Assembly (NCBI GenBank): GCA_963666835.2
Contig: CAXXGO010000007.1
Span: 32,001 to 96,000 of the forward strand
Length of the DNA stretch: 64,000 nucleotides
Direction: 5' to 3'
Origin: Phycisphaerae bacterium
GTDB lineage: Bacteria; Planctomycetota; Phycisphaerae; UBA1845
The translations under genes were made by a program, and so were the position numbers. The notes under the pieces are model-generated. The model saw only the letters and a program-made list of their open reading frames with translations. It was not told the origin of the DNA and did not search any database. This document shows, piece by piece, positions 12,585 to 39,661 of this stretch; position 1 is the first letter of the stretch, and each line of letters starts with the position of its first letter.

Positions 12585-14511
12585 GTCGGAGTAGGAATCC
12601 CGGTTACCCGGGACCCCCTCCACAGATCCCAGCGTGCGGGACTACCGCACTGGGCTCCTGCCTTGGGTCATAACGGCCAGGTGTCGGTCGGGGTAAGGAT
12701 GTAGGATTTTGGGAGCAGGTATCCACTGCTTGGCCAAACGGTTCATGCGGGCCCAGGTAATCCGAGTCTTCTCGCTGCGACGCCGGAGCGTCCAGCGCCA
12801 AAGACGGACAACCTCATCCCGAAATGCCGTTAAGGCCGGGTAGTTCCGCGGTACCGCATAATACTGATAGTACCCGCGAACCACCGCCCGCAAATACGCG
12901 CCCACCTCTCGGACGGGGGCATGCATACGTCGCCGAAGCTCTTGCTTAATCGCTTTGAGCTTCGCACGCCGTCGTTTCGCGACAGTCTGCCGTAGTACCG
13001 TGAACCTCCCACGCCGGGTCTTGCCACAGATGTGGCGAAAACCCAGAAACTCGAAGGTCGCCGGTTTGCCGCGGCCTTCTCGCTTGCGATTGGTCGACGC
13101 AAAACGGCCGAACTCAATCAGACGAGTCTTGTCCGCATGTAGCTCCAGCTTGAACTTCCGGAGGCGATCCGTCAGCTCATCCCGAAACCGCTCGGCATCC
13201 TCTCGCTGTTGAAATCCCACCACGAAGTCGTCCGCATATCTCACGATAATCACATCTCCGTGAGCTTGCGTCCGTCGCCATTGGCGGGCCCACAAGTCGA
13301 AGGCGTAATGGAGATAGATGTTCGCCAATAGCGGGCTGATACTGCCCCCCTGCGGCGTCCCCGTCTCCGTGTCCCTTCGACACCCGTCCTCCAGCACGCC
13401 GGCGTTCAGCCACTTCTTCACGTGACGCACGACACGCTGGTCTGCGATCCGGTGCTCGACGAACTTGATCAGCCAATCGTGGTCTATGGCATCGAAGAAT
13501 CCACGAATGTCTGCATCCAGCACCCAATTCACCTTCTTCCTCTCGATGCCGACAGTCAGGGCACTTAACGCCTGATGGGCGTCCCGTCCTGGTCGAAATC
13601 CGTAGGAGAACCCGAGGAAGTCTGCCTCGTAGACAGCCGAGAGCACATCGGTCATCGCCCGTTGGACGATCTTGTCTTCCAACACGGGAATCCCTATTGG
13701 TCTCTGCCGTCCATCGGGTTTCGGAATGTAGACCCGCTTGACCGGCCTCGCTCGGTACGCTCCGCGCTGTAGACGTGCCGACAGATCCAAGAGGTGTTCT
13801 TCTAGGTCCCTGCCGTACGCCTCCCATGTCATGCCGTCCATCCCCGGTGCCGAAGCATGCTTGAGGCTCAAGTACGCCTCCCGGAGGCGAGCGACATCAT
13901 AGACATGGTGCCAAAGCGTGGTGAACTGTAAATCCTTATCCTTTACCGCTGCCTGTCGTACCCGATCCAACCCGCTTTGCAGACGATCCCGGCTCTGCGT
14001 ACGGTGCCTGTTGTGTCGAATCGAGTTGCCCTTGGCCAGGCCCCTTTCCTCCAACTGCTCCGCGGACGACCTCCCCGCCGGGGGATCACCGTTGTTCGCA
14101 GTCTTCTTCGGTACTATGGGCCTGTCCGACTTCCCGCGCCCGTGCATCAGTGTCGTGCTCCTATGGATTCACACTGCGGACCTCGATGCCATGTTCGAGG
14201 CCGAACGCGGGATCTCCCGGGTTCCGCGTGAGGAGTTTCCGTGCGTGCTCGGGTTCTAAGACCGCGCGGAGTCCGAAAGGCGTCTCGCGTTAACGACGCC
14301 CTCCGGTGTTGCCTTCCGCCTTGGGGGACGGCGTCGGCACTCCGGAGTAAAAGGCTTTCACGGCTCAATGGCCGGCCCGCACGTGCCCCTGTCAACGCTC
14401 CCGCCATGCCCTTGCGGACACCACAGTATGACTCGGGGTCGGTGTGGTTCGCTATTCCTTCACCGTATGGCTCTCTCATCCACTACTCCTCACCGGCTTA
14501 CCGGCGCTTTC
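12585..14511 (-). mobile_element. Full-length group II intron (IIB-like, bacterial class E type) inserted in a dispersed repeat
   Basis: Domain V GAGCCCAGTGCGGTAGTCCCGCACGCTGGGATC; domain VI with bulged A 8 nt from the terminal AC at 12585; flanks rejoin to match the repeat at 7760-7930; 5' boundary uncertain by 2 nt. Confidence 0.9.
12642..14147 (-). CDS. ltrA: Group II intron reverse transcriptase/maturase without endonuclease domain
   Basis: IPKPDGRQRPIGIP, DADIRGFFD, GTPQGGSISPLLANIYL, RYADD, maturase ILHPYP; no HNH motif. Confidence 0.95.
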   Translation of the reverse strand: MHGRGKSDRPIVPKKTANNGDPPAGRSSAEQLEERGLAKGNSIRHNRHRTQSRDRLQSGLDRVRQAAVKDKDLQFTTLWHHVYDVARLREAYLSLKHASAPGMDGMTWEAYGRDLEEHLLDLSARLQRGAYRARPVKRVYIPKPDGRQRPIGIPVLEDKIVQRAMTDVLSAVYEADFLGFSYGFRPGRDAHQALSALTVGIERKKVNWVLDADIRGFFDAIDHDWLIKFVEHRIADQRVVRHVKKWLNAGVLEDGCRRDTETGTPQGGSISPLLANIYLHYAFDLWARQWRRTQAHGDVIIVRYADDFVVGFQQREDAERFRDELTDRLRKFKLELHADKTRLIEFGRFASTNRKREGRGKPATFEFLGFRHICGKTRRGRFTVLRQTVAKRRRAKLKAIKQELRRRMHAPVREVGAYLRAVVRGYYQYYAVPRNYPALTAFRDEVVRLWRWTLRRRSEKTRITWARMNRLAKQWIPAPKILHPYPDRHLAVMTQGRSPVR

Positions 14512-30653: not shown

Positions 30654-31103
30654 GTAGGGCAGGTCGAGGTACGAGACCTGCCGCTGTTTTAGCGTAATGT
30701 GCGCGGGTGCCCCGTCGCTTTAGCGGTGGGGGACTCGCGCGTTACATGCCACGGGTCAACAAGTTGACCCATGCCACCCATCTGGCACCCCCGGTAGGGC
30801 AGGTCGAGGTACGAGACCTGCCGCTGTTTTAGCGTAATGTGCGCGGGTGCCCCATCGCTTCAGCGGTGGGGGACTCGCGCGTTACATGCCACGGGTCAAC
30901 AAGTTGACCCATGCCACCCGGCTGTCACCCCCGGTAGGGCAGGTCGAGGTACGAGACCTGCCGCTGTTTTAGCGTAATGTGCGCGGGTGCCCCATCGCTT
31001 CAGCGGTGGGGGACTCGCGCGTTACATGCCACGGGTCAACAAGTTGGCCCATGCCACCCATCTGGCACACCCGGTAGGGCAGGTCGAGGTACGAGACCTG
31101 CCG
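30654..31103 (+). repeat. Tandem array of 140-bp REP mosaic units (3 full plus 1 partial)
   Basis: GTAGGGCAGGTCGAGGTACGAGACCTGCC recurs at 30654, 30794, 30934 and 31074 with near-identical intervening DNA. Confidence 0.93.
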
Positions 31104-31463
31104 CCGTCTTCGCGCGATGTGCGCCGTTGTGGCAGGTCTCGTGCCTCGACCGTGCCCTACGAGCTCTTCGCGCTATGCGCGTCTTTTGAACTCACGCCAA
31201 CGGCGTTTAACAGCAAAGCCCAGGGTAAACGAAGCGGCGCAGCCGCGCAGCGCCACCCTGGGGCACGGCGCCCCTTTCCACACCAACCCCGAAGCGGGTT
31301 GAACAACGGCGCAACCCCTGTCGGGGTTGATCCTCGATGTCACCGTAATCCCAGGGTAGCCGCTGCGCAGCAACCCTGGGCTATAGGACGTAACGCCTAC
31401 CTTCCTGACATATGTCCACCCGGGTACCTTGGTAACGGACTTCGGGACTTGGGAGGACTACGC

Positions 31464-32315
31464 ATGGGGCTGCGGAACAAGAAGAAGGAGAGGCTTGAGC
31501 GTCTTGACTCGAAGACACTGGATGCCAAGTTTTTGCACGAAATCAAGCACGGACTCCATTGTTCGCCATTCGAGGCCGAGGCGGTTCTCGATGTGGTCAA
31601 GGAAGTTTACTTCCCGTACCTCGATGAACACGCCGGCAAGGCCCCACCTGGCAAGATTGGCTTGGTCGTCGTCGACGCCGACGAGCCTGCCGGGAAACCC
31701 GTCTGCGAATGCCAGAAGCAGAACGTGTGCCTGACAATCCACCGAGGTGCAGAGGATGATCGACTTCTGGAGGAGGAGGGGCCGGTCGGCTTTCGACAAG
31801 CCCGCATCCCACCGCTTTGCCAAGAAGCCCTGAGTCAAGGTGGGCTGCTCACGCGCGAAGATCTGGCCTACCGGATGTTCTTTGTTACGCCACGAACCAT
31901 TACGCGCGATTTGAACGCTCTCCGGAGTGCGTATCCCGGGGTGCTTATTCCTCTGCGAGGAATCGTACACGATCTTGGTCCCGTGTTGACTCATCGCAGC
32001 CAAATCGTGCGTTTGGCTCTGGAGGGAAAGACGACCTCACAGATCTGCACCATGCTTCGCCATTCACCGGCGGCTGTAGCGAACTACGTCTCGACATTCA
32101 CCCGTTGTGCGCAGTTGGCAAAGAAAGGTATGCAGGTCGGGCAAATCGCCTTCCTTCTGCGGAGAGGCAAGCGGTTGGTACAACAGTACCTTGATCTCCT
32201 CGACGAATGCGCGGTCGACAAGAACATGGGCTATCACCTGGAAGAACTGATGCGCCTGGGTTGTTGTGGCGGGGGGAAAAAGGGACACGGTGAAGAGGGA
32301 AGATCCGATGGGTAA
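31464..32315 (+). CDS. DUF1670-like protein A
   Basis: GGAGG RBS; EALSQGGLLTREDLA...IPLRGIVHDLGPVLTHR...HSPAAVANY (family recognised from recalled motif). Confidence 0.8.
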   Translation: MGLRNKKKERLERLDSKTLDAKFLHEIKHGLHCSPFEAEAVLDVVKEVYFPYLDEHAGKAPPGKIGLVVVDADEPAGKPVCECQKQNVCLTIHRGAEDDRLLEEEGPVGFRQARIPPLCQEALSQGGLLTREDLAYRMFFVTPRTITRDLNALRSAYPGVLIPLRGIVHDLGPVLTHRSQIVRLALEGKTTSQICTMLRHSPAAVANYVSTFTRCAQLAKKGMQVGQIAFLLRRGKRLVQQYLDLLDECAVDKNMGYHLEELMRLGCCGGGKKGHGEEGRSDG

Positions 32316-33081
32316 GCCGCGAGACACCAACAGCAGAAGATACAGTCCCCTGCAGGCGAAAACGCTGAGAAACGTGTTGGCTCACCGCATCGAAACGGAG
32401 TTTCCACGCATAGGCGGCCCACGGATTCGCAACCTGTGCGCAGAGATGATCCTTGAGGTCATCGGTGCCCACGTTCTCCCGAAGGAGCATATCCAACATG
32501 GTCAGATACTCTGGATGGCGATCAGCAGCGCAGATCCCCCGAGTCAGCGTCGACGGATTGAGGATACCGATCTGCTTCCGGTGGTCTTGGACGTGAGTAC
32601 CTTCGAGGATATCGAGATGCGTTTGCAGAAGAAGGGACGTGGAGAGTTGCTCTTACAAAAGAGCTTGAGGTTATGCCGGCAGGCGTACGAACAAGGGGGC
32701 GTTCTGTCCAACTCTGATCTCTCGGAGTTGTTAGCAGTCAATGCGTCGGACGTCTCGCGATTGTTGGCGGCGTACGAACGCGAGACCGGTCAGATCGTCC
32801 CACGTCGCGCTACTGTCCACGATGTCGGCACAGGGCTTACGCACAAACGGATCATCTGTTTCAAACATTACGCAGAAGGCAAAGCGGCTAACGAAGTGGC
32901 TCGGGAAACGTACCACAGCCTTGAGGCTGTGGATCGTTACCTGGGCCAGTACGATCGCGTCCGCCACTGCCATCTTCAGGGGCTGACGGCAAAGGAGACA
33001 GCCCATGCTTTAGGTTGCAGCATCTTCCTGGTTCAGGAGTACCTGGAGATCGATCATGAGTTGGAGGGCCAGCATGCTTGA
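32308..33081 (+). CDS. DUF1670-like protein B (paralogue of A)
   Basis: QAYEQGGVLSNSDLS...VPRRATVHDVGTGLTHK...HSLEAVDRY; overlaps gene A by 8 nt. Confidence 0.8.
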   Translation: MGKPRDTNSRRYSPLQAKTLRNVLAHRIETEFPRIGGPRIRNLCAEMILEVIGAHVLPKEHIQHGQILWMAISSADPPSQRRRIEDTDLLPVVLDVSTFEDIEMRLQKKGRGELLLQKSLRLCRQAYEQGGVLSNSDLSELLAVNASDVSRLLAAYERETGQIVPRRATVHDVGTGLTHKRIICFKHYAEGKAANEVARETYHSLEAVDRYLGQYDRVRHCHLQGLTAKETAHALGCSIFLVQEYLEIDHELEGQHA

Positions 33082-33119
33082 CTCGATGGCACAGCACGTC
33101 AGACTTGTGTGTGCTGGTC

Positions 33120-33270
33120 GAGAGGACAGGGCTCTGCTGAGGAGCACCCCGAGCGCTCGTACCAGTGCCGGGACAGGCGCGGGAGTCTGCATGCACGGCG
33201 GGCTCTCGCTCTCCCTGGCCTGTTCTGGCTCCCAAGCGACAAACCTTGGGGGTCTGGGGGCAAAGCCCCC
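33120..33270 (+). ncRNA. Candidate structured non-coding motif shared with the IS1111 element
   Basis: Homologous to 39302-39482 (minus strand); preceded by TTGACT-16 nt-CAGACT (33078-33105); ends in GGGGGC-AAA-GCCCCC hairpin. Confidence 0.55.
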
Positions 33271-33628
33271 GGTGATCGCCACACGGTCGCGGTGGACATA
33301 TGTCACTATCTACGGCGTATTTGCGACCGCGGGTGCCCAGCGTTATCGGAGCAAAGGCCTGACCGGAGTGCATTCCTACACCGTGAACGGCTCTACCGCG
33401 ACGCAGGCAATCTGGCAAATCATGGGGGAAGACGGCGCCGCCCGAGGATTCGGTTGCGGCAGATTCACCGGGCCGACCGAGCTGGCCGCCCGGCAGCCAT
33501 ACCGGCGAAGCCCAGCCGCCAAAGAGGATTCGGCTTCGATACAAAGCCGACCGAGCCGATATCGCTGATCGGCGGATAACTCGATATTGCGACAGACCGA
33601 CCCCATTTGGATATAGTAAGAACAGCTC

Positions 33629-36600: not shown

Positions 36601-37117
36601 GCATGACCGCAACGCGCGTCTTACCGAGTTCGAGTTCCCCCGCATGGGCAAGCCGCCGTACTGGTGCATCAGCGACTTCTTCAGACCGGCTGACGGCGGG
36701 GTCTTTGATGTCGTCGCGTTCATGCTGGTGACTGCAGGCCGGCGGGTCGGCGAGGTTGCGCACGATCTGCGGGCGGCCAATCGGTATCAGGATTACCTGC
36801 ACCTCCACGGTCTGGGCGTAGAGATGACCGAAGCGTTGGCCGAGTATCTGCATCAGCGGATTCGCACCGAATGGGGAATCGGGGGGAACGCCCCCGAAGA
36901 CCAAAGGAAGATCGGCGTGCAATCTCGGCAGGGTTCGCGCTATAGCTTCGGTTATCCGGCTTGTCCGCGCTTGGAGGACCAAGTGAAACTCTGGCCTCTC
37001 CTCGAACCGGAACGACTCGGCGTGAGCCTCTCGGAGACGTGCCAGTTAGAGCCGGAGCAAACCGCCACCGCCCTAATCGCTCACCATCGTCAAGCGAAGT
37101 ACTTCAGCGTGAGCTAG
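33629..37117 (+). CDS. metH: Cobalamin-dependent methionine synthase
   Basis: FDGAMGT, GVNCATGP, GGCCGTTP, IGERTNANGS, GDVHDIGKN, RYSFGYPACP. Confidence 0.97.
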   Translation: MSQADLMQTVTERVLVFDGAMGTGLHARELSISDYGGHEGCPEVLVRTRPDVILDIHRSFLAVGCDAVLTNTFGANQVVLIDYDLADQTFELNKAAAELACRACRDFERPGRPRFAVGSIGPGTRLPTLGQITWDELVQSYREQTLGLLAGGVDAVVIETCQDILQAKSAIVAAGDAMTEQNREVPIFCTVTIQPTGTMLVGTDLAAAVTTIQAFDRVAAIGVNCATGPQEMAEHVHYLSSCCARPLIVQPNAGLPQLLDGQPHYDLTPEEFAKWMVEFVDRDGVSIVGGCCGTTPEHLAAVVDALDGHRPKTRRDKSEPALSSVYQSVTFRQENTVLMIGERTNANGSKRFRELLAEDDFDGMLQVARQQIDDGSHLLDVCTAQVGRDEERDMIELIRRLAVDITAPLVIDSTEPAVIEAALKLLGGKAIINSINLEDGEEKAAAVCRLARRYGAALIALTIDEAGMAKTCSRKVEIARRLYELAVNRHGLHPEDLIFDPLTFTVGTGNPQDSGLALETLDAVAEIKSVLPNVHTLLGVSNVSFGLKPPVRRVLNSVFLHHAQQRGLDAAILHPTGILPLHSINEHHRRLAEDLIFNRRSGEYDPLAELLEALADAPQETARVIELPPKVEDRLRKRIISGERRDLAEDLDEALGTHTAEDIINDILFDGMNTVGDLFGAGQTQLPFVLRSAETMKAAVQYLEPHMSRDAAADKGTLVLATVRGDVHDIGKNLVDIILTNNGYTVHDLGIKQPISNIIKACNEYEPDAIGMSGLLVKSTVVMRENLQTLNEHGITTPVILGGAALTRRFVEQDLRAEYGGPVYFAKDAFAGLRLMDEITTDRARASAAVERLLTPIAGAVIGNAPPAVSEIYEAGGEHSEHPEYIPPRSDISRDEPVPEPPFWGARVLENVPIGEVAAHLDEKALFQVHWQYRKNRRSLQEYGRFLDTEVRPILCDLLDRCVREDILKLQAVYGFWPAQAEGDSLVVYDPHDRNARLTEFEFPRMGKPPYWCISDFFRPADGGVFDVVAFMLVTAGRRVGEVAHDLRAANRYQDYLHLHGLGVEMTEALAEYLHQRIRTEWGIGGNAPEDQRKIGVQSRQGSRYSFGYPACPRLEDQVKLWPLLEPERLGVSLSETCQLEPEQTATALIAHHRQAKYFSVS

Positions 37118-37128
37118 AACGAGCGGGT

Positions 37129-37536
37129 GTCGGAGTAGGAATCCCGGTTGCCCGGGACCCCCTCCACAGATCCCAGCGTGCGGGACTGCCGCACTGGGCT
37201 CCTACCTTGGGCCATAACGGCCAGGTGTCGGTCGGGGTAAGGATGTAGGATCTTGGGAGCGGGTATCCACTGCTTGGCCAGACGGTTCATGCGGGCCCAG
37301 GTAATCCGAGTCTTCTCGCTACGACGCCGGAGCGTCCAGCGCCAGAGACGAACAACCTCATCCCGAAACGCCGTTAAGGCCGGGTAGTTCCGCGGCACCG
37401 CATAATACCGATAGTACCCGAGAACCACCGCTCGCAAATACGCACCCACCTCTCGAACGGGGGCATGCAGATGTCGCCGAAGCTCTTGCTTAATCGCTTT
37501 GAGCTTCGCACGCCGTCGTTTCGCGACAGTCTGCCG
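37129..37536 (-). mobile_element. 5'-truncated copy (3' 408 nt) of the class E-type group II intron
   Basis: Near-identical to 12585-12992, including the maturase C-terminus, DV and DVI. Confidence 0.92.
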
Positions 37537-37589
37537 CTATCCCTACGCCATCGTCTCGTCTTGTCGAGAATCCCGTCGCGCACAAGCGG

Positions 37590-37787
37590 TCTGGGCTTCG
37601 CCAGTCCATGGATGGCTCGCCGCAAACGCCCGGCCGAATCGCGTTTGTCTTCCTGCGGACCGATGATTCACCTCCGGTTGCTCCCCACCCCGCCTCACGG
37701 CGACGCAGTTACCTTCAGTTACAGGCCGGAGAACGCATGCCTGAAGGGGACTTGCACCCCTCCGATCAAGTACACTCTTAGGCGCAC
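37590..37787 (-). mobile_element. 5' fragment (domain I) of a IIC-type group II intron
   Basis: Starts GTGCG at 37787; AGGGGTGCAAGTCCCCT; AACTGCGTCGCCGTGAGGCGGGGTGGGGAGCAACC; lies 3 nt after a hairpin once the IS is removed. Confidence 0.75.
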
Positions 37788-37865
37788 TAATCGCATGAAA
37801 GGCTGTCTCCCGCCGGACGGTAGGATGTCCGTTCGGCGGTCGGGAGGACCAATAGGGAGACGACC

Positions 37866-39053
37866 ATGAAGAAGGACAGAATGGTAGCGCAGATTGGCTT
37901 GGATAGCCACAGGAAGTTCAGCTCGGTGACGGCACGGGGAGAAGACAACAGGATTGTATGGCGGCAGCGTCTCGAGCACTGGAATCGGGACGAGGTACGG
38001 GAACGCCTGCAGTCTTGGCCGGTTGGGACTCCCGTGATTCTCGAGGGGACGTTCGGGTGGGGCTGGTTGGCGGACGAGTTGACCGCGGCGGGGTTGGATC
38101 CGCACTTGGCATCGAGTCGGAAAGTGGCTGGCTGGCGGGAGGTTCGGGGAATCGCGAAGTCCAACCGGACGGATGCAGATCTGTTGTCGGAGCTGTGGTC
38201 GGAGAAGTCGCGGTGGTGGGAGGTCTGGCTGGCGCCGCGGGCGGTTCGGGACGAGCGAGAACGGATGCGGTACCGAATGAGCTTGGTGCAGATGCAGACG
38301 CGGCTCAAGAATCAGATTCACGCCATCCTGCATCGGCACGGGATCTTGCATGAGTTTTCCGACCTTTTCGGCCGGGCCGGCCGGCGTATGTTGGATGGTC
38401 TGGTAACGCCGAAGGATGAGACGCTTCGAGCCAGCGCGAAGGCTGCGTTGAAGGGGTATCTGCAATTGCTCGATCATGTGCGTCGCCAGATTGCACGGGT
38501 CACGCGAGAAATTCGCCGGGAGCTCAAGAAGGATCCAAACGGCGAACGCTTGCGTACGATCCCGGGGATTGACGTGGTTTTGGCGTATACGATTCTGGCG
38601 GAGATCGGACGAATCAGCCGATTCCCAAACCGGAAACACTTGGCTTCGTACGCCTTGTTGGCTCCGCGCGCGGACGACAGCGGTGATGAGGACGATGAGA
38701 CACCCAAGGGGCGGCATGTGGGACGGATCGGTCGCCGTACGCTGAAATGGGCGTTTATCGAGGCCGCCCGCGGCGCAGTACGGAAGGATAAGCGTTTTCG
38801 GGAGATCTTTGACCGACGCACAGACGGGGGGAAGAAGGACCGCAATCGCGGCTACATCACCGTGGCTCACGATTTGACGCGTGTGGTACACGTGATGTGG
38901 AAAAAGGAGATCGACTACATGGACGATCCGCCGGATCGTCCACGGACAGCATCAAAGAAACGCCGTCCGGCAAGAACGGCAAGGAAGCGACTTCGAAAGA
39001 AATCTCGTCCGGGAACGGGCCAGCCCGAGGACCCTATGGTCGTTGCTGTCTGA
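37866..39053 (+). CDS. IS110-family DEDD recombinase/transposase
   Basis: IGLDSH, ILEGT, KSNRTDA, TIPGID, EIGRISRF, DDSG serine motif, LKWAFIEAA. Confidence 0.95.
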   Translation: MKKDRMVAQIGLDSHRKFSSVTARGEDNRIVWRQRLEHWNRDEVRERLQSWPVGTPVILEGTFGWGWLADELTAAGLDPHLASSRKVAGWREVRGIAKSNRTDADLLSELWSEKSRWWEVWLAPRAVRDERERMRYRMSLVQMQTRLKNQIHAILHRHGILHEFSDLFGRAGRRMLDGLVTPKDETLRASAKAALKGYLQLLDHVRRQIARVTREIRRELKKDPNGERLRTIPGIDVVLAYTILAEIGRISRFPNRKHLASYALLAPRADDSGDEDDETPKGRHVGRIGRRTLKWAFIEAARGAVRKDKRFREIFDRRTDGGKKDRNRGYITVAHDLTRVVHVMWKKEIDYMDDPPDRPRTASKKRRPARTARKRLRKKSRPGTGQPEDPMVVAV

Positions 39054-39210
39054 GAAGACGGCTCCAGGCCTCGTAGTAAATGGGCCGCCCGTACCGGACG
39101 AGATCATGCGACCCCGCGCCCGGTGTCCCATGGTGGCATCGGATCGACATCATGTTGTTATGTCGGCAGGCAAGCGGTAGCGCGAATGGATAGATGGACC
39201 GATCGAGAGA
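39002..39210 (+). ncRNA. Predicted bridge/seek RNA of the IS1111 element
   Basis: 11-bp stem 39002-39012/39094-39104 encloses GGACCCTA and CGTA (target matches); CATGCGA and ATGGATA match the donor junction. Confidence 0.65.
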
Positions 39211-39661
39211 TCTAGTCCGAACCGGTACACGGACGAGACAGATACGAGAAAGACACTGGGAAACGCCCGCGGGGTCGGGCTTTCCCGCCTACGGCGGAAC
39301 TGGGGGCGCTGCCCCCAGACCCCCGGAGTTTATCGCTTTGGACCAAGAGCAGACTGCAGAACATATGATAAGAGGCGTCCACCAGCTACGATGGACGCCC
39401 CTGCCCTTGACCAGGTCGTCAAGAGTCTGCCCTCGGGTCTTGCGGGCGCTCGGGTCGCACTCCTGCGTTGCCCTACCCTCTCGCAAGACAACGCCAGGAT
39501 AATCGGATTGACCCCAATCGAACAGCCCCGTTGCCTGCCGAATCAGCAAGCAGCCGGGCCGAATGGGAATGTTTTATACTTGACCGGGACATGCCTTTCA
39601 TGGATAGGGTCCGCTGTGCGGACCATCTGTCTTTGACCGTTTCGCTGCTCGAGAATGCACA

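Follow-up and report, generated by a model that had tools for sequence, protein, structure and literature searches.

A head-and-tail module shared by many unrelated mobile elements, a possible RNA-primed single-strand origin

The closest known systems to the module described here are the single-strand origins (ssos) of rolling-circle plasmids, phages and ICEs, namely ssoA, ssoU, ssoT, ssoW and the sso1 of ICEBs1. Also to be considered are ColE1 RNA II, a promoter-driven structured primer RNA with a G-rich loop that base-pairs to a C-rich segment, and the bacterial MITEs and REP-derived palindromic elements, which are short, gene-less, multicopy and intergenic and have inverted ends. As for the ssos, PMC5703833 describes them as functional on the leading strand only, and the modes of priming listed in PMC4595007 are three, by RNA polymerase on a folded ssDNA promoter, by the host primase and by a plasmid primase, none of which, as listed there, uses a pre-made RNA.

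Below we report the analysis of a motif that occurs twice in the window, that is, the whole stretch of 64,000 nucleotides that was analysed. The earlier note had placed one copy in a DUF1670 element and one in an IS1111-type element, with blocks in common; the alignment bears out both positions and the shared blocks, and both copies indeed lie between the gene 3' end and the right end, in opposite orientations relative to their genes. Overall, the motif is a two-part module, composed of a structured head driven by a predicted promoter and a tail made of a stem partner, a AAGCGATAAA-type box and an optional G-rich hairpin. The features are as follows.

31393..33318, + strand: DUF1670 two-gene element, with subterminal inverted repeats 31406-31419 and 33292-33305; six genome copies
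31464..32315, + strand: DUF1670 ORF1, 283 aa (Pfam PF07900, E 1.8e-37)
32308..33081, + strand: DUF1670 ORF2, 257 aa (Pfam PF07900, E 1.6e-49)
33078..33105, + strand: predicted promoter of copy 1, -35 TTGACT and -10 CAGACT, predicted start about 33113
33113..33166, + strand: head of copy 1, with P1 stem, internal loop, core 33123-33155 and tetraloop GAGG 33139-33142
33167..33229, + strand: variable insert region of copy 1, with P2 5' strand 33167-33178, inner hairpin and pyrimidine run, P2 partner 33218-33229
33234..33270, + strand: tail of copy 1, with box 33234-33243, loop-pairing CCTT 33244-33247, G-run and triloop hairpin 33256-33270
37788..39613, + strand: IS110-family element (IS1111-type, subterminal repeats), five copies; right end approximate
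37866-39053, + strand: transposase of the IS1111-type element, IS110 family
39054-39300: candidate bridge RNA region of the IS1111-type element
39302..39368, - strand: tail of copy 2, with P2 partner, box 39338-39329, loop-pairing CTCC 39328-39325, G-run and hairpin
39435..39501, - strand: head of copy 2, with -10 TATCCT 39501-39496, core 39479-39447 and tetraloop GGAG 39463-39460

The tail pattern has exactly two matches in the window, a number reached by none of 100 shuffles, and the two copies have folding z-scores of -3.4 and -5.0. In both, the tetraloop is complementary to the bases behind the box, GAGG to CCTT and GGAG to CTCC. The -10-like hexamers of the earlier note are present as CAGACT (33100-33105, with TTGACT 16 nt upstream), 23 nt 5' of the head core of copy 1, and as TATCCT, 22 nt 5' of that of copy 2; a strict sigma-70 scan calls neither, and we predict promoters here because the position of the hexamer is conserved in relatives. 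A terminator scan calls none inside either copy, and neither insert contains a U-run. In their own genome 12 module copies are found, all 12 head matches lying within elements: six in identical copies of the DUF1670 element, five in the IS1111-type element and one in what remains of the right end of a further DUF1670 element. With its two genes, the DUF1670 element is multicopy and mobile, and inserts into palindromic repeats. We found no paper using the term DUF1670 in the literature searched, and the ESM Atlas returns DUF1670 clusters only. Across the phylum, PF07900 occurs in 3 of 301 genomes and the strict tail pattern in 1 of 301. Elsewhere in the window, group II intron remains with a maturase fragment (37114-37704, - strand) adjoin the IS1111-type element, another group II intron domain lies at 14252-14476, and 30800-31160 holds a 140-bp tandem array of a REP-like palindrome that is abundant and has a great number of genomic relatives. 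In runs X1 and X2, loose ends at window position 33156 give a further head variant from the same community; no circle junction was seen among the joints listed for contigs of four runs, which we do not take as evidence.

The reading that we prefer, with a probability of about 0.5, is that the module RNA anneals to single-stranded DNA of the element and primes second-strand synthesis there, which would make the module a new kind of single-strand origin.

As to structure, the head has a core of 33 nt with strong covariation. In a gap-free alignment of 51 non-redundant heads, which were picked by pattern so that invariant columns partly reflect selection, the 11 named pairs are formed in 96.8% of cells and 8 of the 11 show double changes, equalled in 0 of 500 shuffles, while slid controls give 33-42%. 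G-U pairs number 55 against 14 A-C pairs, an excess that tells which strand forms the structure. A TAnnnT hexamer peaks 22-23 nt 5' of the core (21 of the 51 heads), a -10-like hexamer stands at -22/-23 in 57 of 113 metagenome heads among the matches listed, and position -10, the first base of P1, is a purine in 43 of 51 heads. The strand that follows P1 pairs with the bases 5' of the box, with a mean of -19.9 kcal/mol compared with -9.0 for shuffled partners (better in 136 of 138), and downstream of this P2 strand stands a hairpin, a U-run being present in 73 of 138 inserts. The earlier note missed a further pairing, that of the tetraloop with the bases behind the box, and likewise the possibility that head and tail stand on opposite strands. 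Among 138 non-redundant loci, 84.6% of loop-tail cells are Watson-Crick, while shuffled pairing gives 55.3 ± 1.8% with a maximum of 61.4% in 5000 shuffles; the loop-tail pairs are among the top covarying columns and rank with the stems in mutual information. On the 51-row alignment they are 97.1% paired with 38 double changes (0 of 500 shuffles), and two of five measures, the pairs with a double change and the further pair types, are not above shuffles. The loops of 161 tail hairpins are mostly AGA (75), AGC (24), GGA (16), TG (16) and AAA (11), kinds that are stable in DNA. In addition, the internal loop of the head resembles a bacterial loop-E submotif.

No family of Rfam 15 matches the motif, one of the checks proposed earlier: the window gives none at the gathering threshold, both copies give sub-threshold chance matches only at E<=10, 20 loci give none at E<=0.5, and one chance miRNA match off the motif was obtained with 8 loci. 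A likeness of the module to the ykkC riboswitch and to SRP was set aside, Rfam giving no match. An RP4-type oriT on the reverse strand of the head was also rejected, as the would-be nick base covaries with P1 (33 G-C and 14 C-G of 51).

On the whole, the module is real, widespread and uncatalogued. The tail pattern was found at no fewer than 111 GTDB loci and two viral loci, in Planctomycetota, Desulfobacterota, Bacillota, Acidobacteriota, Verrucomicrobiota and others, with a head upstream of the tail in 79 of 113 GTDB and viral loci among the matches listed. An independent head pattern recovers at least 119 metagenome loci and 22 viral loci; among the matches listed, the box follows in 86 of the 110 metagenome heads with room for it, compared with 1 of 110 when the other strand is read and 3 of 99 when the upstream side is. 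Tabulation of neighbour genes shows association with mobile elements of many families: among the matches listed, 47 of 77 metagenome loci with neighbour ORFs scanned adjoin a transposase or DUF1670 gene, and a further 8 adjoin an ATPase or helicase gene of an rve-type transposon. The carriers are IS3, IS21, IS256, IS110/IS1111, IS30, ISL3, IS481-like and DUF1670 elements and tyrosine recombinases, with single cases of IS630 and IS1380, and the module is common to many unrelated elements, a small plasmid and a filamentous (inovirus-like) phage. The proposal of a modular, covarying single-stranded structure shared across element families is supported well beyond two copies; among the roles offered with it that of a priming signal fits best, and a scaffold for DUF1670 proteins is unlikely because the enzymes of most carriers are unrelated. 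Within the order the head occurs patchily, in 15 of 61 genomes, not as the single copy in most genomes of the clade that marks a conserved host sRNA. In other searches, a first viral pattern had no matches, a looser scan of viral sequences for the head contributed mainly chance matches, plasmid blastn, run with five queries, returned tail-hairpin scraps and pRGF00088 only, the annotated plasmid matches (H1, H8, H14, H26, H31, H34) share no context, and phage records gave no matches.

Several carriers deserve description. At seven loci (L201, L218, L252, L254, L039, L175, L192) a transposon with an rve transposase, an AAA ATPase and a third gene is followed directly by the motif; the third gene, just 5' of the head, encodes an RSF1010 RepA-like helicase (PDB 1g8y, E 1e-11). 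At L163 a group II intron stands directly behind the U-run of the module; IIC introns insert behind terminators. An IS3 end lies within the inner hairpin of the module at L197, and an IS256 carrier in a Brevibacillus genome (L056, 1853-3202) lies beside a thiol-activated cytolysin gene. Sporomusa ovata DSM 2662 also has IS256 copies with the module (L069, L084, L094).

The tail strand is nearly fixed for each IS family. Among 99 loci with an assigned gene, of which 95 were scored and 87 have a tail, relatives being left uncollapsed so that kin are not independent, the tails of IS3 (13/13), IS256 (8/8), IS21 (12/13) and IS110 (16/18) elements are antisense to the gene, and those of the IS481-like (6/6), DUF1670 (5/5), helicase-carrying (7/7) and IS30 (3/4) elements are sense. 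The exceptions are L222, L230, L239 and L209, and L068 falls under no family rule. This polarity is kept at either end of the element, and all six cases with a flipped head retain the antisense tail. In addition, 10.1101/2023.06.07.543989 counts as circle-forming the families of 64 of the 95 scored carriers. Most copies in IS3, IS21, IS256 and IS110 would, from their predicted direction, be transcribed towards the transposase 3' end, and regulatory sRNAs borne by insertion sequences are known, as described for ISPpu9 (PMC8450116), so that one may think of an antisense or attenuating regulator of the transposase, or of an outward promoter with a structured leader. We judge this to be very unlikely: the module is present at either end, in either direction and also where a transposase is lacking altogether, in co-directional cases the head has no complementarity to the transposase mRNA, and the opposite-strand tails described next would be left unexplained.

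For 155 heads there is enough flanking sequence on either side; the tail is downstream only in 121 of them, on both sides in 14, upstream on the opposite strand only in 11, and absent in 9, wrong-orientation controls giving 4 and 7. At 13 listed loci without a downstream tail there is an upstream opposite-strand tail, each with 3/3 loop matches and a P2 match, a rate inflated by the choice of site, in which loop matches were scored; rare codes such as GGCA/TGCC, GGCG/CGCA and GGAA/TTCC are among them. A tail of this kind would be absent from the head transcript, and pairing would therefore have to occur in trans. The predicted head promoter is kept in 14 of 16 opposite-strand loci. On the tail strand a -10-like hexamer lies 48-51 nt before the box in 6 of the 16, mostly the reverse of the conserved AGGATA of the head, and none lies within 60 nt in 8 of the 16; read on the other strand, AGGATA looks like a -10 hexamer, and a second RNA may thus be made.

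These data bear on two readings in which the tail acts within RNA or by read-through. In the first, head and tail form an all-RNA pseudoknot, in one piece by read-through or in two from overlapping promoters, which works as a ribozyme, protein decoy or antiterminator aiding any mobile element. The compact fold with its many invariant bases and the loop-E-like internal loop suit it, the tail 3' of the head in the 121 loci could pair in cis within a read-through RNA, and the tail-strand hexamers could supply the second piece in six loci. Nevertheless we consider it improbable: a diffusible RNA gives no reason for a fixed tail polarity, half of the opposite-strand loci are without the hexamer, the tail hairpin loops are of the DNA-stable kinds named above, and a terminator-like hairpin stands between head and tail. 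In the second, RNA from read-through would open an R-loop at the G-run and there prime the leading strand of a double-stranded circle, as at a ColE1-like transcription-primed origin. ColE1 has a similar G-run motif at 1176-1187, near its origin, and its best match to the 5' half of the head falls in RNA II; but this match scores 12.2 bits with the next best at 11.2 and is not significant, a model search of ColE1 gives nothing (best E 0.8), only 35 of the 86 boxes at metagenome loci, among the matches listed, have a G-rich hairpin behind them, and opposite-strand tails cannot be read by read-through, which makes this origin extremely improbable.

The module is also able to exist without an insertion sequence and has apparently spread so. 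Four planctomycete genomes contain 3, 7, 3 and 15 clear heads, many of them between two inverted tails. Both tails match the loop of their own unit, and the code differs among units; headless tails carry the code of a resident head, by-eye counts giving CTTC in 22 of 37 (G301) and 12 of 15 (G303) and TGCC in 11 of 18 (G304), where GAAG and GGCA heads are resident. These units lie between housekeeping genes, one of them inside an etfB-etfA pair, and among 47 ORFs scanned no transposase is found at any of 14 two-tailed loci. The earlier note had considered an independent MITE with its own ends, and this holds in part: the stand-alone units are gene-less and multicopy with inverted ends, and the window copies are not. 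In G301 a second repeated motif ending GATGACTCAG is seen 30-60 nt outside many two-tailed units (L341-L344, L353).

The main rival to priming starts from these units. It takes the two-tailed unit to be a selfish mobile element without genes; the RNA would identify the two ends of the element for an enzyme in a guide- or bridge-like manner, or the element would copy itself through inward priming at both tails, with the one-tailed copies in insertion sequences as captured or truncated passengers. Besides the location and the matching codes of the units, it finds support in an inverted tail pair around 1.2 kb with a 308-aa ORF (L340, G301:C300, 1112-2363), a possible gene cassette, and in a modest signal that module similarity tracks the host more than the IS family, the identity being 0.655 for 104 pairs from the same host group with different IS families and 0.587 for 18 pairs from the same IS family with different hosts; the module tree is poorly resolved (1 of 28 branches well supported). 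Passengers, however, would not hold a family-fixed tail strand under head flips, nor sit on the nicked strand beside the nick in two replicons (see below); the one-tailed copies retain full covariation, and we found no candidate for the mobilising enzyme. We thus regard this rival as unlikely, and if priming were itself the mechanism of mobility it would be compatible with our explanation.

The nicked strand can be assigned from a nick motif in two rolling-circle replicons. The inovirus-like locus L208 (1-2299) has a Rep_OBD gene on the - strand and, by eye, ssDNA-binding and coat ORFs on the + strand. The pMV158 nick sequence, taken as query from PMC5030251, occurs there once, on the + strand at 1385-1393 at a hairpin apex, and the tail lies on the + strand about 150 nt 5' of the nick, with the head on the - strand like rep. 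The second is pRGF00088, a complete 2.4-kb plasmid with, by eye, a Rep_1-type gene, in which head, tail and a pC194-type nick motif are all on the + strand, the motif following the tail at about 100 nt; the motif is equalled in 1 of 200 shuffles. In both, the tail stands on the nicked strand regardless of the direction of rep and head, the placement required of an sso (PMC5703833). At L179 (Rep_1) the tail is antisense to rep and the only nick-like motif is on the other strand, with one mismatch and 65 of 200 shuffles as good. No viral relatives were found for the two Rep proteins queried.

Priming would proceed as follows. The head would be a small RNA gene with its own promoter, transcribed from duplex copies into an RNA of about 75-110 nt that comprises the P1 domain, a free P2 strand and a terminator-like hairpin. 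Once the DNA of the element becomes single-stranded, this RNA would anneal antiparallel to the tail by two contacts, P2 (about 10-15 bp) and the tetraloop with 3-4 bases after the box, and the invariant box and the internal loop would build a compact RNA-DNA structure. From it the host may start the complementary strand, either through trimming by RNase H and Pol I or through primase. In circle-transposing elements this would speed the conversion of the single-stranded circle to the double-stranded intermediate, and in two-tailed forms both strands would be primed. The loop-address and P2 contacts are colinear and antiparallel, and therefore in every layout the RNA would have its 3' side directed backwards along the tail strand and across the RNA gene, which is the geometry of a primer. 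We also count for priming the helicase gene before the head in the rve transposon and the intron behind the U-run at L163.

Several points stand against priming. Only two rolling-circle cases fit, L179 being a third that may be contrary. Reportedly, the right end attacks in IS2; if so in IS3-family elements, the strand that circularises would be the sense one, and the tail is on the other. For copy-out, PMC9333248 describes priming from the 3'-OH of the flank, and PMC7780238 leaves processing to host factors. Most insertion sequences manage without the module, for example four ISL3 loci and one IS21 locus in its own genome. The 3' end of the RNA would be a hairpin and need processing, and the U-run is present in barely more than half of the inserts, as given above. 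Furthermore, in integrative mobilisable elements (L082, L099) headless tails stand 400-700 nt ahead of the mobC-relaxase genes, on the sense strand; a similar headless tail (L086) lies on the L082 contig.

A wider picture would be that of a protein-free, exchangeable replication module, in which a small RNA reads an address of 3-4 bases and a stem of 10-15 bp on ssDNA in trans, with orthogonal codes, and primes there; ten or more unrelated families would have adopted it to finish their circular intermediates, and its two-tailed form would copy and spread itself. We offer this tentatively, as somewhat more probably wrong than right. If priming is true, it would be a fourth way to prime single-stranded circles, and an element-encoded, strand-specific RNA module would predict the attacking end for each IS family. 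Loop and tail covary in several orthogonal codes, and the module may represent a reprogrammable way, found in nature, for RNA to recognise DNA with no dedicated protein. Should the priming idea fail, a pseudoknot-like pairing that is kept between opposite strands, in a module exchanged among unrelated IS families, still calls for explanation.

Finally, we compare the module with the known systems. No description of it appears in the literature searched, which was mainly open-access, and surveys of RNA motifs could list it in their supplements. With the ssos, as far as PMC5703833 and PMC4595007 characterise them, it shares flexible position, a length of about 150-250 nt and a limited host range, and it would share orientation dependence and location on the nicked strand, as seen in L208 and pRGF00088 but perhaps not at L179. 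Unlike them, it is found mainly in insertion sequences and would use a duplex-DNA promoter to make a folded RNA that anneals in trans; in ssoA, ssoU, ssoT and ssoW the promoter lies inside an ssDNA hairpin, while here the -10 hexamer is outside P1, before the predicted start. These ssos also have RSB and CS-6 boxes, and the box of the module is only loosely like CS-6. Compared with ColE1 RNA II (NC_001371), the promoter-driven structured RNA, the G-rich loop with C-rich pairing and the G-run hairpin motif are alike, but the module RNA is about 100 nt and not 555, its partner stands on either strand relative to the RNA gene, and homology is not indicated by any significant sequence or model match. 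Like the bridge (seek) RNA of IS110/IS1111 (PMC12288879), it would be an IS-borne non-coding RNA with loops that pair with element DNA; unlike it, only 18 of the 95 scored carriers are IS110, the module is antisense to the transposase in most of these, and its loop is complementary to an internal tail, where the loops of a bridge RNA pair with donor end and target. The Ssr9 of ISPpu9 is similar in that it is an accessory sRNA gene 3' of an IS110 transposase, can also be found alone and is mobile as a module; by its description in PMC8450116 and PMC12288879 it is set apart, being sense to tnp, complementary to Asr9, flanked by IS end boxes and confined to one IS family. With MITEs and REP-derived elements the two-tailed units share the short, gene-less, multicopy, intergenic form, while the inverted ends of the module covary with an internal RNA loop and resemble no known IS end.
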